Of a stretch of 18,695 bases of DNA, positions 1 to 7,666 are shown piece after piece (within the stretch, counting starts at the first letter, position 1; each line of letters begins with the position of its first letter). The DNA is from a virus. Taxonomy: Duplodnaviria > Heunggongvirae > Uroviricota > Caudoviricetes. A model generated the notes under the pieces. It saw nothing but the letters and a program-made list of their open reading frames with translations. It made no database searches and was not told where the DNA came from. The position numbers and the translations under genes were made by a program. The stretch lies in the IMG/VR virus record IMGVR_UViG_2609459839_000004; one strand, 5' to 3'.

Positions 1-522
1 ATGTCAAAGCCAAAATACCCTTTTGAAAAGCGCCTTGAAGTCGTGAATCACTACTTCACAACTGATGATGGTTACAGGATCATCTCGGCACGTTTTGGTG
101 TCCCCCGAACCCAGGTCAGGACATGGGTTGCCCTCTATGAAAAACATGGAGAAAAAGGTTTAATTCCCAAACCTAAAGGCGTTAGTGCTGATCCAGAGTT
201 GCGTATTAAGGTCGTGAAAGCTGTGATCGAGCAGCACATGTCCCTTAATCAGGCTGCTGCTCACTTTATGCTTGCTGGTAGTGGTTCTGTAGCCAGGTGG
301 CTGAAGGTCTATGAAGAGCGCGGAGAAGCTGGTTTACGCGCGCTCAAGATTGGCACCAAAAGAAACATTGCAATATCAGTTGATCCAGAAAAAGCGGCAT
401 CAGCATTGGAGCTGTCAAAAGACCGACGCATTGAGGATCTTGAAAGGCAAGTTCGATTTCTTGAAACGCGGCTTATGTATCTAAAAAAGCTGAAAGCCTT
501 AGCTCATCCCACGAAAAAGTGA
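1..522 (+). CDS. insJ: IS150 transposase OrfA (InsJ), HTH DNA-binding component
   Basis: 173-aa ORF starting MSKPKYPFEKRLEVVNHYF..., recognised as IS150 OrfA; ends just after the slippery heptamer. Confidence 0.9.
   Translation: MSKPKYPFEKRLEVVNHYFTTDDGYRIISARFGVPRTQVRTWVALYEKHGEKGLIPKPKGVSADPELRIKVVKAVIEQHMSLNQAAAHFMLAGSGSVARWLKVYEERGEAGLRALKIGTKRNIAISVDPEKAASALELSKDRRIEDLERQVRFLETRLMYLKKLKALAHPTKK
483..489 (+). other. Programmed -1 ribosomal frameshift site (slippery heptamer A_AAA_AAG)
   Basis: A AAA AAG is in the insJ zero frame (codons cta aaa aag); the -1 frame is open from here into insK. IS3-family elements make OrfAB this way. Confidence 0.7.
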
Positions 523-1370
523 AAGTACTCAACGAGCTAAGGCAGTTTTATCCTCTTGATGAGCTTCTCAGGGCTGCGGAGATACCGCGCAGTACGTTTT
601 ATTATCATCTAAAGGCTCTCAGCAAGCCTGACAAGTATGCGGACGTTAAAAAGCGTATTAGTGAGATTTATCACGAGAATAGAGGCCGATACGGATACCG
701 TAGGGTAACGCTGTCTCTTCATCGAGAAGGGAAACAGATTAACCATAAAGCTGTTCAGCGCCTGATGGGAACCCTCTCACTTAAAGCAGCGATTAAGGTC
801 AAGCGATACCGCTCTTACAGAGGAGAGGTAGGGCAAACCGCCCCTAATGTTCTCCAAAGAGATTTCAAGGCTACGCGGCCAAACGAGAAGTGGGTTACCG
901 ATGTTACTGAATTTGCAGTCAATGGGCGCAAGCTGTATTTGTCTCCAGTAATAGATCTCTTCAACAACGAAGTTATTTCTTACAGCCTTTCGGAAAGACC
1001 AGTGATGAACATGGTTGAGAATATGCTCGATCAGGCATTCAAAAAGCTTAATCCTCACGAGCATCCTGTTCTGCACTCTGACCAGGGATGGCAGTATCGT
1101 ATGAGAAGATATCAAAATATCCTTAAAGAACATGGTATTAAACAAAGCATGTCCAGAAAAGGCAATTGTCTGGATAATGCTGTGGTGGAGTGTTTCTTTG
1201 GAACCTTAAAGTCGGAGTGTTTTTATCTTGATGAGTTCAGTAATATAAGCGAACTGAAGGATGCTGTTACGGAATATATTGAATACTACAACAGCAGAAG
1301 AATTAGCCTGAAATTAAAAGGTCTGACTCCAATTGAATATCGGAATCAGACCTATATGCCTCGTGTTTAA
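519..1370 (+). CDS. insK: IS150 transposase OrfB (InsK), DDE catalytic domain; expressed mainly as an InsJK fusion
   Basis: 283-aa ORF in the -1 frame relative to insJ; the track start at 519 is GTG; integrase-core-like segments ([15 protein letters not shown]) present. Confidence 0.88.
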
Positions 1371-3126: not shown

Positions 3127-3492
3127 ATGACTGAACGCATAGAATTTGTTTTGCCTTACCCGCCAACGGTGAACACTTACTGGCGACGTCGTGGCAGCAC
3201 ATATTTTGTATCAAAAGCCGGTGAGCGTTATCGCCGTGATGTGGCGCTTATTGTTCGCCAGCAGCGGCTGAAATTAAACCTGTCCGGAAGGCTGGCGATA
3301 AAGATTATTGCAGAGCCACCGGATAAGCGCCGCCGCGACCTGGACAATATCCTGAAGGCACCACTGGATGCGCTGACGCATGCCGGACTACTTATAGACG
3401 ACGAGCAGTTTGATGAAATCAATATTGTGCGCGGTCAGCTCGTTCCTGGTGGGCGGCTGGGGATAAAAATCACAGAACTGGAGTGCGCATGA
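3127..3492 (+). CDS. rusA: RusA-family Holliday junction resolvase
   Basis: 121 aa with LPYPPTVNTYWRRRG and RRRDLDNILKAPLDAL motifs as in RusA; typical nin-region position. Confidence 0.85.
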   Translation: MTERIEFVLPYPPTVNTYWRRRGSTYFVSKAGERYRRDVALIVRQQRLKLNLSGRLAIKIIAEPPDKRRRDLDNILKAPLDALTHAGLLIDDEQFDEINIVRGQLVPGGRLGIKITELECA

Positions 3493-4178
3493 ATAACCAG
3501 TATTTACAGTTTGTGCGTGAGCAGCTCATTATCGCCACCGCTGATTTGAGTGGGGCAACAAAAGGTCAGCTTGAAGCCTGGCAAGAGAATGCCATGTTCG
3601 ATACAGGGCGTTACAGGCGTAAAAAAATCCGGTACCGCGATGAAGTGACTGGAAAAATGATAACGCGGGATAATCCACCAATCCCGGGAAAGCAATCGCT
3701 GGCGAAAGGTTCATCAATTGCCCTGGTCAGTCCGGTTGAGTTTTCGACATCATCATGGCGACGCGCCGTTCTGTCTCTTGAAGAGCATCAGAAGGCGTGG
3801 GTGCTGTGGGTATACAGTGAAAATCCGAGTTGGGATTATCAGGTGGTCATTGCGAAATGGGCGTGGGATAAGTTTCAGGTGCATTTTGGCACCAGAAAAA
3901 TTACAGGGAAAACGCTTGAGCGTCTGAAGAAATTAATCTGGCTGGCGGCGCAGGATGTCAGGGGGAGGATTACTGGGCGTGACGTCTACCAGCGACAGGA
4001 ACTTGCCAGACTGTGTGGAGTTAAGCCTGACAACTGGAGCCATAATTATGCGAACTACTGGCGTGAGATGTGCGACATTTTTAAGAAACTCGATACAGAA
4101 TCCTTGATTTGCACCGTGAAAATGAGATCGCAACAAAAAGCGACCTTTTCACGACGAGATATTGCAAAAGTCAATTAA
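3489..4178 (+). CDS. Late-gene antiterminator Q (QuuQ-like family)
   Basis: ~229-aa ORF directly upstream of a promoter-plus-terminator unit and the cargo/lysis region; ATGA overlap with the rusA stop. Family assignment is by synteny and recollection, not a verified alignment. Confidence 0.6.
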   Translation: MNNQYLQFVREQLIIATADLSGATKGQLEAWQENAMFDTGRYRRKKIRYRDEVTGKMITRDNPPIPGKQSLAKGSSIALVSPVEFSTSSWRRAVLSLEEHQKAWVLWVYSENPSWDYQVVIAKWAWDKFQVHFGTRKITGKTLERLKKLIWLAAQDVRGRITGRDVYQRQELARLCGVKPDNWSHNYANYWREMCDIFKKLDTESLICTVKMRSQQKATFSRRDIAKVN

Positions 4179-4191
4179 ATCGCATACATTT
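4163..4191 (+). promoter_or_regulatory. Candidate late promoter pR' (sigma70 -35/-10) overlapping the 3' end of Q
   Basis: TTGCAA (4163-4168), 17-bp spacer, TACATT (4186-4191). Confidence 0.4.
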
Positions 4192-4226
4192 TATGTAAAT
4201 GTGATATTTTGCCGTATAGTGTGTAA

Positions 4227-4249
4227 ACCCGCTTAAATGCGGGTTTTTT
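4227..4249 (+). terminator. tR'-like intrinsic terminator downstream of Q
   Basis: acccgc-ttaaat-gcgggt hairpin followed by a T run, ~35 nt downstream of the predicted start site. Confidence 0.6.
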
Positions 4250-4322
4250 GCTTAACTCTGTGGACCTTTTTATCTGTAGTTGTAAGATATGGATATTCTT
4301 ACAATTTAGGTCGGTGAGCTTA

Positions 4323-5087
4323 ATGGAAGAACAGCACGGTAATTACTTTATAAAACGAATTCAGTTGATTGGAAGAGGTGCATTTGGCTTTGTTGAACAC
4401 GTTAAGGTTTACAACCTCAACAAGGGTGAATGTGGGGATTATGCTAGAAAGGTTTTAGCCCCCGAAAAACCAGAGCTTTTGGCGCAAATAGAGCAGTTTA
4501 GAAGGCGTTTTAAAAGGGAGGTCGTGTATCAATCACATTGCGTACATAGCAATATTGTTCCTATTTATTTGTGCGATTTGTTTGCCGAGAATCCATGGTT
4601 CATTATGGATAAAGCAGAATGTGATCTTGAGCACGAAATAACGAACAACCTTCTTACAACAGATCAAAAAATTTCAATAGTGAAAATGGTATTAGATGGT
4701 GTAGCTCACATCCATGCGAAAGGCTATTTACACAGAGATATAAAACCATTTAATGTCTTGCGATTTAGCGACGGAACATACAAGGTGTCTGATTTTGGTC
4801 TGGTAAAAGATACAAATCCCGAAGGGGATACCACTAAATTGACCGAGATCGGTACCCGTATGGGAAGTACAAGATATATGGCTCCCGAGATTTTATATAA
4901 TGCCGAGTATTCAGTTAAGACTGATGTTTATGCGGTGGGGCGGTTAATTGAGGACTTAAATTTAGATGATAAAAAAATAAAGCCTATCATAGCGAAGTGT
5001 ACCAGGATGGATAAAGATGATAGATATCAGACAATAGATGATGTGGCGTTTGATTTTGTGCATTCTTTTTTAAGGAGTGAGTCATGA
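4323..5087 (+). CDS. Eukaryotic-like (Hanks-type) Ser/Thr protein kinase, minimal catalytic domain
   Basis: Gly-rich loop GRGAFGFV, putative catalytic Lys in YARKV, catalytic loop HRDIKPFN, DFG, YMAPE, DVYAVG; AT-rich codon usage unlike the flanking phage genes. Confidence 0.85.
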   Translation: MEEQHGNYFIKRIQLIGRGAFGFVEHVKVYNLNKGECGDYARKVLAPEKPELLAQIEQFRRRFKREVVYQSHCVHSNIVPIYLCDLFAENPWFIMDKAECDLEHEITNNLLTTDQKISIVKMVLDGVAHIHAKGYLHRDIKPFNVLRFSDGTYKVSDFGLVKDTNPEGDTTKLTEIGTRMGSTRYMAPEILYNAEYSVKTDVYAVGRLIEDLNLDDKKIKPIIAKCTRMDKDDRYQTIDDVAFDFVHSFLRSES

Positions 5088-5827
5088 TTCAGCTGATAGC
5101 GACTTCATCATTCTCGTATCCAAAAGAACCAGGTAGGGTCAACGAAGATTCATTGCTTCCTCCCAAAATTGTAGGGGATGGCATCTTATTTGCCGTAGCT
5201 GATGGTGTAGGTTCATACACTGGTGCCAGTCAGGCTTCATCAATGGCAATTGCTGAGCTTTCAGCATTGACAAGCTTATCTTTTGACACAGTTCCGGATG
5301 TATTTGATGAAGTTAAGCGAAAGGTTATGTCGTTAGCTGATGTTAATGATGAGTTCGATAAAGCTGCTACTACACTTACGTTTTGTTATGTTTGTGATAG
5401 CGGAATTATTATTGGTCATATTGGTGATTGTCGTTTGTATTGCATTGGAGAGAAGAAAGCATACCAATTGACGAAGGACGATACCAGGCATCAGATGCTA
5501 ATTGATCAGAATATTTTTAAACCCAGAGATTTGAAGGATAAACCGGGCAAAAATATCTTAACGACGGCTATAGCCTCAAATGTTGATATGGAATACGACT
5601 GTGATTTTATCACATGGAAAGATTTACCTAGTATTAACGGGGTATATCATCTGTGTATCATGTCTGATGGGGTTCATAACGTTTGGGAAAAACGCCCCAG
5701 ATTTACATCAAATACGATGAGTAATAGTCAGAAGTTTTCTAATGGCATTTTGCGTCGTATAGAGAGAGCCGGACCTGATGATGACTTTTCTTTAGTAAGT
5801 ATAATGGTGCGTGTGACGTCAGATTAG
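5084..5827 (+). CDS. PP2C-family (PPM) Ser/Thr protein phosphatase
   Basis: Motifs NEDS, AVADGVGSY, GHIGDCRLY, LTKDDT, MSDGV in PP2C order; AAGGAG SD inside the kinase 3' end; ATGA start/stop overlap with the kinase. Confidence 0.8.
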   Translation: MIQLIATSSFSYPKEPGRVNEDSLLPPKIVGDGILFAVADGVGSYTGASQASSMAIAELSALTSLSFDTVPDVFDEVKRKVMSLADVNDEFDKAATTLTFCYVCDSGIIIGHIGDCRLYCIGEKKAYQLTKDDTRHQMLIDQNIFKPRDLKDKPGKNILTTAIASNVDMEYDCDFITWKDLPSINGVYHLCIMSDGVHNVWEKRPRFTSNTMSNSQKFSNGILRRIERAGPDDDFSLVSIMVRVTSD

Positions 5828-5899
5828 TTGTATAAACTCAGTAGGGAATGCTAATTTCACATACAACATAGTTAAAGAAAACTTAATTTTAATGTAAAA

Positions 5900-5924
5900 A
5901 GGCTGCCCTCAGGCGGTCTTTTTA
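5900..5924 (+). terminator. Intrinsic terminator after the kinase/phosphatase operon
   Basis: ggctgcc-ctca-ggcggtc hairpin (with G-U pairs) followed by ttttt. Confidence 0.4.
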
Positions 5925-6046
5925 TGCTCGAAAATTGATGCAGTACGTTAAACGCGCTGGTGGTTGCGAATACCGGTCTTTCAGCTTGCTGGCTTTTTAG
6001 ACAAGAGTTATTGGTATGTCACGTTAACCAGAAAAGGGAAAAAGAC

Positions 6047-6244
6047 ATGCTAAAACAGCAGGATATGACCGAAACCGCCAGAGTGGTGTTTAATGAATTA
6101 AGCGTCACCGAACCGGCGACCGTCGGGGAAATTGCGCAGAATACTTACCTTTCACGCGAACGCTGCCAGTTAATACTGACTCAGCTTGTTATGGCGGGTC
6201 TGGCAGATTATCAGTTCGGTTGTTACAGACGCCTTCCTCAGTGA
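6047..6244 (+). CDS. Small winged-helix/HTH-like protein (65 aa) upstream of the methyltransferase
   Basis: ATG at 6047 after a purine-rich stretch; segment ATVGEIAQNTYLSRERCQLILTQLVMAGL resembles an HTH recognition unit. Confidence 0.4.
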   Translation: MLKQQDMTETARVVFNELSVTEPATVGEIAQNTYLSRERCQLILTQLVMAGLADYQFGCYRRLPQ

Positions 6245-7493: not shown

Positions 7494-7569
7494 GGCCCTT
7501 TAGCTCAGTGGTGAGAGCGAGCGACTCATAATCGCCAGGTCGCTGGTTCAAATCCAGCAAGGGCCACCA
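7494..7569 (+). tRNA. tRNA with CAU anticodon, most likely tRNA-Ile2 (lysidine-type, reads AUA)
   Basis: Cloverleaf: acceptor GGCCCTT/AAGGGCC, D-arm GCTC-AGTGGTGA-GAGC, anticodon loop CTCATAA, T-arm GCTGG-TTCAAAT-CCAGC, encoded CCA. Resembles ileX more than elongator Met as recalled; CAU alone cannot separate Ile2 from Met. Confidence 0.8.
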
Positions 7570-7576
7570 TCACATA

Positions 7577-7653
7577 CCGCCATTAGCTCATCAGGAAAGA
7601 GCGCCAGCTTTCGAAGCTGGTTGCGCGGAGTTCGGGTCCCCGAAGGCGGTCCA
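7577..7653 (+). tRNA. tRNA-Arg(UCG)-like, non-canonical; possibly degenerate
   Basis: Anticodon stem-loop CCAGC-TTTCGAA-GCTGG gives anticodon UCG; D-arm GCTC...GAGC; acceptor starts with C and has one mismatch, T-stem has one mismatch, T-loop TTCGGGT lacks the usual A58. Boundaries approximate. Confidence 0.5.
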
Positions 7654-7666
7654 TTATCTGTATCCT

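Follow-up and report, generated by a model that had tools for sequence, protein, structure and literature searches.

A coupled Ser/Thr kinase and PP2C phosphatase carried as a two-gene cassette behind antiterminator Q in a defective Escherichia coli prophage: a candidate toxin-antidote switch

Introduction

Why would a lambdoid prophage carry a eukaryote-like protein kinase together with a protein phosphatase directly behind its late antiterminator? The locus that raises this question occupies positions 4323 to 5827 of an 18,695-nucleotide stretch of Caudoviricetes DNA (IMG/VR record IMGVR_UViG_2609459839_000004). The whole stretch is referred to as the window and is assigned to part of a defective lambdoid prophage of Escherichia coli. 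Phosphorylation-based bacterial immunity is known from few systems (Stk2, 933W Stk, TerY-P and KKP), in which extra domains or proteins obscure sensing. The post-Q slot of lambdoid phages exchanges cargo and adjoins the site of the Shiga toxin genes. The analysis reported here identifies the pair as a widespread, database-annotated and functionally uncharacterized two-gene variant of known kinase/PP2C conflict modules. In our judgment the chances are even that the kinase is a toxin and the phosphatase its antidote in a switch for abortive infection or superinfection exclusion, which would incidentally maintain the element that carries it. If this is true, the bare two-gene module would be the simplest setting in which to learn how a phage tips a kinase/phosphatase balance, and would also be suited to asking which substrates stop infection and whether the module stabilizes its carriers.

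The kinase and the phosphatase are bare catalytic domains

The kinase matches Pfam Pkinase with E = 2e-33 (116 bits against a cutoff of 31.7), and the Pfam scan returned the kinase domain alone, with no sensor or accessory domain. Conservation was scored in an alignment of 35 homologues with 43-75% identity. The residues G17, G19, G22, K43, E66, H137-R138-D139, K141, N144, D157-F158-G159 and D201 are invariant, and A187-P188-E189, R234 and T174 in the activation loop are at least 90% conserved. The catalytic motifs that the first-pass annotation of the window had read as intact (GxGxxG, Lys, HRD, DFG and APE) are thus all either invariant or conserved at that level. The catalytic loop HRDIKPFN makes this an RD kinase, and a loop of this form is of the Ser/Thr type. 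The activation loop spans residues 160-186 with the conserved T174 inside it. The AlphaFold model has a pLDDT of 90.9 with disorder confined to the activation loop, and it superposes on PknB/Stk1 (Foldseek TM 0.7-0.8), which are also the closest solved sequences in a search of the PDB. The Gly-rich loop, the VAIK Lys, the αC Glu and the HRD, DFG and APE motifs, with the profile match and the bilobal fold, place the protein in the Hanks-type kinase superfamily (PF00069), and it looks catalytically competent. NCBIfam has no family-level model for it (104 bits against a cutoff of 450).

The phosphatase matches Pfam PP2C_2 with E = 2.1e-14 (54 bits against a cutoff of 24), with no additional domain in Pfam and no family-level model in NCBIfam (93.5 bits against a cutoff of 230). 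The metal-binding Asp motifs ascribed to it by the first-pass annotation are invariant in 35 homologues: D22, D40-G41, G114-D115, D195-G196 and D233-D234. Its AlphaFold model has a pLDDT of 92.4 and matches Stp1/PstP/tPphA in Foldseek with TM 0.75-0.78, and the same three proteins are the closest solved sequences in the PDB. The metal-binding Asp residues, which belong to motifs I, II, VIII and XI, and the PPM β-sandwich fold assign the protein to the PPM/PP2C phosphatases (PF13672), and the phosphatase, like the kinase, looks catalytically competent.

Profile searches and structure prediction of both proteins therefore bear out the kinase and PP2C folds, the active-site residues are unsubstituted, and the predicted structures hold nothing unusual. 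Homologue lengths are uniform. Among the 120 matches listed for each protein, kinase homologues measure 241-284 residues, save one truncated entry of 217 residues, and phosphatase homologues 239-259 residues. This agrees with the view, already taken from the open reading frames, that neither protein has a sensor domain. The phosphatase (window 5084-5824) matches positions 273-520 of the 565-position PHROG profile phrog_5650, and because it covers only this part of the profile, some members of phrog_5650 may be kinase-phosphatase fusions or merged gene calls.

The two genes are coupled and are inherited as a unit

The kinase stop codon TGA (5085-5087) overlaps the phosphatase start codon ATG (5084-5086) in an ATGA at 5084-5087, and the phosphatase has its own Shine-Dalgarno sequence inside the kinase gene (Table 1). 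This overlap and the internal AAGGAG lie where the first-pass annotation had placed them when it called the genes coupled, and its reading frames are exact. The kinase and phosphatase are predicted on this basis to be translated from one message by translational coupling. RefSeq gives identical boundaries for both coding sequences and names them "serine/threonine-protein kinase" (WP_000392434.1) and "PP2C family protein-serine/threonine phosphatase" (WP_000615424.1). Positions 4180-5950 of the window are 100% identical to E. coli E24377A and five more complete genomes. The pair region was found in 50 of 5426 complete E. coli genomes (about 1%) as two alleles about 5% apart. Compared between the two alleles, the kinase gene has a dN/dS of 0.04 and the phosphatase gene one of 0.11, which indicates that both genes are under purifying selection.

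The association of the two genes extends far beyond E. coli. A scan of IMG/VR returned at least 451 kinase relatives in viral contigs, and in the best 80 of these loci, where kinase identity to the query falls to 36%, a PP2C gene lies directly downstream on the same strand in 80 of 80 cases. The PP2C gene in these 80 loci usually overlaps the kinase gene or starts within about 25 nucleotides of it. The divergence of the kinase is correlated with that of the phosphatase (r = 0.82, n = 63 loci below 90% identity). The GC content of the cassette is 0.35-0.43 in every host, including Xanthomonas, where it is 0.42 against 0.65 in the flanks. These features indicate that the kinase-PP2C pair is inherited as a unit on a mobile cassette.

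Where the pair has been damaged, the kinase is the gene that was hit. The kinase is frameshifted or truncated and the phosphatase intact in four loci (L032, L033, L091, and positions 635-1198 of L100, from E. coli strain 510016), and the phosphatase of strain 510016 is the identical protein WP_000615424.1. Among the loci inspected there was no clean reverse case of a broken phosphatase beside an intact kinase; the sole irregular phosphatase (L094) resembles a partial duplication. Damage to the kinase only is in the direction predicted for a toxin/antidote pair. Along with the strict pairing of the genes, it is an indirect hint of a type VII-like toxin-antitoxin system, in which the antitoxin would neutralize the toxin by enzymatic modification.

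The pair lies in a terminator-bounded insertion downstream of Q

The pair is carried on a discrete insertion. Homology to the prophage of strain ECL27829 (L015), in which the site is empty, stops at 4212 and resumes at 5915, which sets the insertion at 4213-5914. Its GC content is 0.38-0.40 (about 39%) compared to about 0.50-0.54 (about 52%) in the flanks. A lambdoid moron is an accessory segment, acquired independently, that is present or absent between conserved flanking genes, is unlike the carrier phage in base composition and has a promoter and a terminator of its own. The insertion has the first two properties and a strong downstream terminator, and its leader gave no promoter match of 9/12 or better. 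The 3′ end of Q and the following 34 bp or so are shared with the sister prophages, as the homology to L015 runs to 4212.

An intrinsic terminator stands at each end of the insertion. The upstream terminator and the leader that follows it are homologous to the corresponding segment of a related cassette (L031) that lies behind another Q/PR′ region, which indicates that this terminator moves together with the cassette. The downstream terminator aligns with the terminator of the empty-site prophage and takes the place of the tR′-like terminator found there. Of 11 loci checked, 8 have a terminator of similar kind 3′ of the pair. The leader between the upstream terminator and the kinase contains no σ70 promoter matching at 9 or more of 12 positions, and the best local matches score 8/12. 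The leader also holds a perfect inverted repeat whose hairpin has a predicted energy of -12.2 kcal/mol (z = -2.1). Both of its arms are altered at a paired position in the ML35 allele (G-C to U-G as RNA), and the right arm is lost in L031. The repeat was dropped as a candidate operator or functional hairpin; it is unconserved in L031 and its fold z is only -2.1.

The best σ70 match near the end of Q is TTGCAA-17-TACATT at 4162-4190, which scores 8/12 in the window and 9/12 in the ML35 allele, and the conserved segment after Q probably holds the late promoter PR′. Because this best PR′ candidate sits between Q and the break point of homology, the pair would belong to a Q-controlled transcription unit behind a terminator, as judged from the anatomy of the region. 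The first-pass annotation had put the pair in a transcription unit downstream of Q, and this placement is supported, with the promoter assigned by inference from the 8/12 match.

The family recurs in several phage slots and on plasmids

About 200 homologue clusters were found for each protein, with lengths alike. Their hosts are Enterobacterales, Pseudomonas, Vibrio, Aeromonas, Pasteurellaceae, Xanthomonas and Acinetobacter. When sequences are clustered at 50% identity, the phosphatases form a compact clade with only 19 representatives below 1e-30 in 1.84 billion, beyond which the matches are generic bacterial PP2Cs. A nucleotide search of a phage collection with the cassette gave no match, and relatives were present there at the protein level only. 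The family is widespread yet functionally uncharacterized, so the pair is not a member of a family of known function.

Genomic positions were counted in 42 non-redundant viral loci. The arrangement Q-pair-lysis accounts for about 9 of the 42 and is seen here, in Yersinia and in Cronobacter phage phiES15. About 10-12 of the 42 have the pair between Rz and the small terminase, as in Escherichia phage Flotzy, two Enterobacter prophages and a Serratia prophage. In a further 5-6 of the 42 the pair is co-oriented directly behind a CI-type repressor gene that is divergent from Cro/YdaS-YdaT, and no terminator separates the repressor from the kinase in the five such loci examined. This last slot is the position of lambda rexAB, which is transcribed with cI in lysogens. 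The Q-to-lysis junction emphasized by the first-pass annotation thus recurs as a site for the pair, and the pair is not peculiar to this junction, since two more phage slots and plasmids are also used.

Outside lambdoid phages the pair is found on non-mobilizable Acinetobacter plasmids of 10-19 kb. On A. baumannii plas3_LRT (L099, NZ_CP121378.1; 7669-11463) it directly follows a complete Septu system (PtuA 3e-127, PtuB 1e-63), and on A. johnsonii pAJ4132 (L098; 479-2863) it adjoins a RelE/ParE-HTH toxin-antitoxin pair. A Xanthomonas copy is beside a NACHT NTPase, which gave no PADLOC match, and a SymE toxin. The pair lies in a transposon island in P. putida, adjoins a PM2-like element in Vibrio and is near the integrase end of a prophage in Haemophilus. 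The roles suggested in the first-pass annotation (abortive infection, superinfection exclusion and modification of host proteins) are plausible. The contexts behind CI repressors, next to Septu and on plasmids favor a module that would protect the lysogen or the element, rather than one that acts in lytic growth specifically.

The pair is related to, and distinct from, characterized kinase/phosphatase systems

The closest characterized systems are KKP, TerY-P and 933W Stk, and the pair has the defining architecture of none of them. KKP and TerY-P, which are the closest precedents, were missed by the first-pass annotation. KKP is the nearest in logic and components. It consists of PfpC-PfkA-PfkB and occurs in Pf6 and other prophages; the two kinases are jointly toxic, the PP2C phosphatase PfpC neutralizes them, and a phage replication protein that inhibits PfpC triggers defense (Guo et al. 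2024; PMC11341870). The system has three genes of 900-1300 bp in the order phosphatase-kinase-kinase and is found in P2, P4, Mu-like and Pf prophages (PMC11341870). The kinases end in a cold-shock domain (PfkA) and an FHA domain (PfkB), both needed for toxicity, and the system also controls activation of the Pf prophage through phosphorylation of MvaU (PMC11341870). The pair resembles KKP as a prophage-borne operon of a Hanks-type kinase and a PF13672 PP2C phosphatase that has moved horizontally among Gammaproteobacteria. It is set apart by the description of KKP in having two genes, bare domains and a home in lambdoid prophages. The order kinase then PP2C, seen here and in 80 of 80 viral loci, and the missing cold-shock and FHA domains place the pair outside KKP.

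TerY-P is a triad of a TerY-like vWA protein, a PP2C phosphatase and a kinase fused to a zinc ribbon or an OB fold (PMC10542128). The stand-alone TerY-P-like system of Gao et al. 2020 defends against phage, according to the account given in PMC10542128. Like TerY-P, the pair joins a kinase to a PP2C phosphatase in what is predicted to be a phosphorylation switch, and both are associated with conflict systems. There is no vWA gene beside the pair in the window, and vWA is not among the 25 most frequent Pfam families of the three upstream and three downstream neighbors in the 42 loci. With no vWA neighbor and no extra domain on its kinase, the pair was not assigned to TerY-P.

The lone kinase 933W Stk (Friedman et al. 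2011) is described in the accounts consulted as a tyrosine kinase that is silent until the heterologous phage HK97 infects, upon which abortive infection follows (PMC3681748, PMC9122126). Both 933W Stk and the kinase studied here are eukaryote-like kinases on E. coli lambdoid prophages, and Stk lies in the immunity region, as does a subset of the present family. The kinase of the window differs in its phosphatase partner, its position after Q and its Ser/Thr-type loop. It is 26% identical to 933W Stk over 68% of the query, and on this identity, the post-Q site and the phosphatase it was excluded from the 933W Stk family. The single-gene defense kinases (staphylococcal Stk2, E. coli PD-T4-6 and MAD6 of MADS) are longer (292-659 positions) and belong to systems defined without a coupled PP2C gene. 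The PD-T4-6 profile PDLC04047 is matched over 11-201 of 327 positions, which leaves its C-terminal third without a counterpart and rules out membership, and with the NCBIfam MAD6 model the kinase scores 67 bits, where the cutoff is 460.

The closest solved structures by both sequence and fold come from the housekeeping pairs PknB-PstP of M. tuberculosis and Stk1-Stp1 of S. aureus. In these pairs, and in StkP-PhpP of S. pneumoniae, the PP2C phosphatase dephosphorylates the activation loop of its partner kinase. The kinases of all three pairs are PASTA membrane receptors that serve cell-wall and division signaling. In contrast, the kinase and phosphatase of the window are cytoplasmic and sensor-less, and they are carried on mobile elements.

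Proposed function of the pair

The mechanism proposed here treats the cassette as a minimal relative of KKP. A self-contained mobile cassette (terminator-leader-kinase-phosphatase-terminator) entered directly downstream of Q. Its transcription, probably from PR′, would be weak in the lysogen, where polymerase has to read through the first terminator, and strong once Q antiterminates upon induction. The RD kinase would activate itself by phosphorylation of its activation loop, for which T174 is the candidate site by analogy with PknB-PstP, and the active kinase would phosphorylate host proteins, phage proteins or both, with harmful effect. The phosphatase made alongside it would continually undo this phosphorylation and keep the module silent in a healthy cell. 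The most likely trigger, by analogy with KKP, would be infection by another phage, one of whose proteins inhibits the phosphatase or activates the kinase; the module may instead respond when the element is lost or its expression stops. Either event would lead to runaway phosphorylation and to growth arrest or a failed infection. Toxicity, trigger, targets and expression in the lysogen are all steps that we infer. PADLOC lends this proposal some resemblance to known defense, in that the best matches of the kinase are defense kinases (mad6 at 1e-39, PD-T4-6 at 1e-34 and Stk2 at 5e-28).

A number of observations count against a defensive toxin-antidote role. The PADLOC similarity of the kinase is confined to the generic kinase domain, and the phosphatase has a single marginal match (PDC-M21C, E = 0.007). 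The cases in which the pair neighbors defense genes are anecdotal and carry no enrichment statistic. The kinase-only disruptions are few, and those of L033 and strain 510016 are possibly one allele. The Q-to-methylase slot that the cassette occupies was considered as a defense hotspot and this was not borne out; its alternative cargo gave no PADLOC match, and for that reason the slot is not demonstrably such a hotspot. The anatomy of the cassette predicts that expression peaks late in lytic growth and that the lysogen transcribes the pair little, barring leakage through the first terminator or a promoter that escaped recognition. Because no convincing promoter was found between the upstream terminator and the kinase, expression of the cassette in a lysogen of this prophage can only be presumed. 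No experimental study of a kinase-PP2C pair of this kind was found in the literature searched, in which KKP and TerY-P were the only kinase/PP2C modules to come up, and subscription journals may hold some.

The same anatomy is what a helper of late lytic growth would have. Under Q control the kinase might modify host proteins of the cell envelope, of transcription or of defense, or else phage proteins, and thereby raise the yield, tune the timing of lysis or blunt host defenses, with the phosphatase limiting its action. The cassette has the orientation of the late operon and no detected promoter of its own, and it is flanked by two strong terminators, both downstream of the likely PR′. About half of the classifiable viral loci adjoin the lysis cassette, either before the holin or after Rz, viable temperate phages (phiES15 and Flotzy) carry the pair, and phage T7 gp0.7 is a precedent for a host-modifying phage kinase. 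We nevertheless regard this role as unlikely. The pair is also found behind CI repressors, on small plasmids and in transposon or chromosomal islands without lysis genes, and here it is intact under purifying selection in a prophage that makes no particles; moreover, both late-operon slots are usual insertion sites of cargo for lysogenic conversion. A position directly downstream of the CI repressor gene, as in a subset of the family, would suit a regulator of lysogeny or induction, in which the kinase/phosphatase balance sets the phosphorylation of an H-NS/StpA-like silencer or of a phage regulator in the carrier or in co-resident prophages. The cassette is AT-rich and AT-rich DNA is a typical target of H-NS. 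KKP, which acts through MvaU, is a precedent (PMC11341870). This explanation is quite unlikely: small non-phage plasmids and islands outside prophages are ill-suited to a regulator dedicated to prophages, and the pair passes between phage backbones that are unrelated and differ in both repressor and Q type.

The strict pairing of the two genes, the kinase-only disruptions, and the presence of the pair on 10-19 kb non-mobilizable Acinetobacter plasmids, once beside RelE/ParE, would also be expected of a purely selfish addiction module, that is, a kinase/phosphatase toxin-antitoxin system that stabilizes any carrier without defending it against phages. With its pLDDT of 92 the phosphatase looks like a stable globular enzyme and not obviously like a labile antitoxin, and pure addiction is in our view highly unlikely. 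It overlaps the preferred explanation, because the majority of recently tested toxin-antitoxin modules from prophages act against phages as well. That the kinase is injected into animal cells as a virulence effector, like YpkA, NleH or LegK, with the phosphatase as a safety catch on the bacterial side, can scarcely be credited. Many carriers are enterotoxigenic E. coli (ETEC) or other clinical E. coli isolates, and the kinase has weak similarity to the NCBIfam LegK1 model (E = 2e-13, far below the family cutoff). This similarity is generic to the kinase domain, the kinase has neither a secretion signal nor an accessory domain, and the family is present in environmental Vibrio, Pseudomonas, Xanthomonas and Acinetobacter and on plasmids. 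A coupled phosphatase is, to our knowledge, not a feature of known effector kinases. A toxin-antidote switch directed against invading phages remains the explanation that we prefer. It could be extended to the whole group, although we think this broader claim somewhat more likely to fail than to hold: the pairs may constitute an unnamed two-gene anti-phage and toxin-antidote family, with a phosphorylation-based immune switch smaller than any now known, one in which an invading phage acts on the catalytic domains directly, and whose terminator-bounded cassette spreads through Gammaproteobacteria on lambdoid phages, on other prophages and on small plasmids.

Prophage context of the cassette

The features of the pair, its cassette and the surrounding prophage are collected in Table 1.

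Table 1. Coordinates of the kinase-phosphatase cassette and of neighboring features in the window
Feature	Position	Strand	Description	Basis or context
IS3-family insertion sequence	1-1370		HTH_28 ORF (open reading frame) then rve transposase ORF	Left end, prophage early region
Antiterminator Q gene	3483-4178	+		Pfam Phage_antiter_Q, 4e-84
Inserted cassette (moron)	4213-5914	+	1702 bp	Missing from sister prophages with the same Q and methylase
Upstream intrinsic terminator	4225-4249	+	AAACCCGC-loop-GCGGGTTT then T-run	Terminator scan; -13.5 kcal/mol, z = -3.8
Leader	4250-4322	+	73 nt; weak ribosome-binding site GGTGAG at 4313-4318	
Perfect 8-bp inverted repeat	4280-4304		TTGTAAGA-N9-TCTTACAA	In leader upstream of kinase
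Ser/Thr protein kinase	4323-5087	+	254 aa, 765 bp; kinase domain alone	Pfam Pkinase
Shine-Dalgarno sequence for phosphatase	5072-5077	+	AAGGAG	Within kinase coding sequence, 6 nt upstream of phosphatase ATG
PP2C (PPM) Ser/Thr phosphatase	5084-5827	+	247 aa, 744 bp; catalytic domain alone	Pfam PP2C_2
Downstream intrinsic terminator	5901-5923	+	GGCTGCC-CTCA-GGCGGTC then T5	-16.7 kcal/mol, z = -5.0
65-aa ORF	6047-6244		phrog_331, no Pfam match	Conserved between cassette and methylase
tRNA-Met(CAT), tRNA-Arg(TCG), tRNA-Arg(TCT)	7494-7743			
IraM-like gene	8033-8368	-	111 aa; phrog_4407	Post-tRNA slot
Nu1-like small terminase	12327-12875			Directly followed by major capsid protein E
Major capsid protein E	13643-14671			
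Tail protein Z	15452-16027			Followed by tail protein I
Tail protein I	16607-17287			Followed by J fragment (region 12327-18166)

The gene order upstream of the pair is IS3-family transposase, DUF968, RusA and Q. The cassette is followed by the 65-aa ORF, an N6/N4 DNA methylase, three tRNA genes and an AT-rich island with the IraM-like gene. The 65-aa ORF is assigned to the phage backbone and not to the cassette, because it is also present at the empty site. Further downstream are an S21-type holin, a DUF1327 gene, a lysozyme, Rz, a DUF1398 gene on the minus strand and the Nu1-like small terminase. The large terminase, the portal, the protease and most tail genes are missing from the prophage, which is why it is considered defective, and the pair is intact in this prophage that is unable to make particles.

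In Stx phages, stxAB follows the ileZ-argN-argO trio of tRNA genes, and the trio of the window has the arrangement that precedes stxAB there. The cassette lies directly after Q and 1.7 kb upstream of this trio. The first-pass annotation had placed the pair between Q and the lysis genes, where Stx phages carry stx. The position right after Q stands; the holin (9047) is 3.2 kb away, with the small ORF, the DNA methylase and the three tRNA genes in between, and the stx slot after the trio holds the IraM-like gene. This gene is carried by an AT-rich island at 8000-8600 (32-35% GC). Its RefSeq relatives are named "anti-adapter protein IraM", and it has no Pfam or PADLOC match.

Other E. coli prophages carry different genes in the slot between Q and the methylase. 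In strain 2015C-3121 (L016, NZ_CP027340.1) positions 1447-1791 encode an apparently solitary toxin of the MazF/PemK family by RefSeq, followed by two 65-aa ORFs, and in strain ETEC4073 (L017, NZ_CP122660.1) positions 1427-2140 encode a 237-aa protein. Both cargoes are bounded by terminators that resemble those of the kinase cassette.

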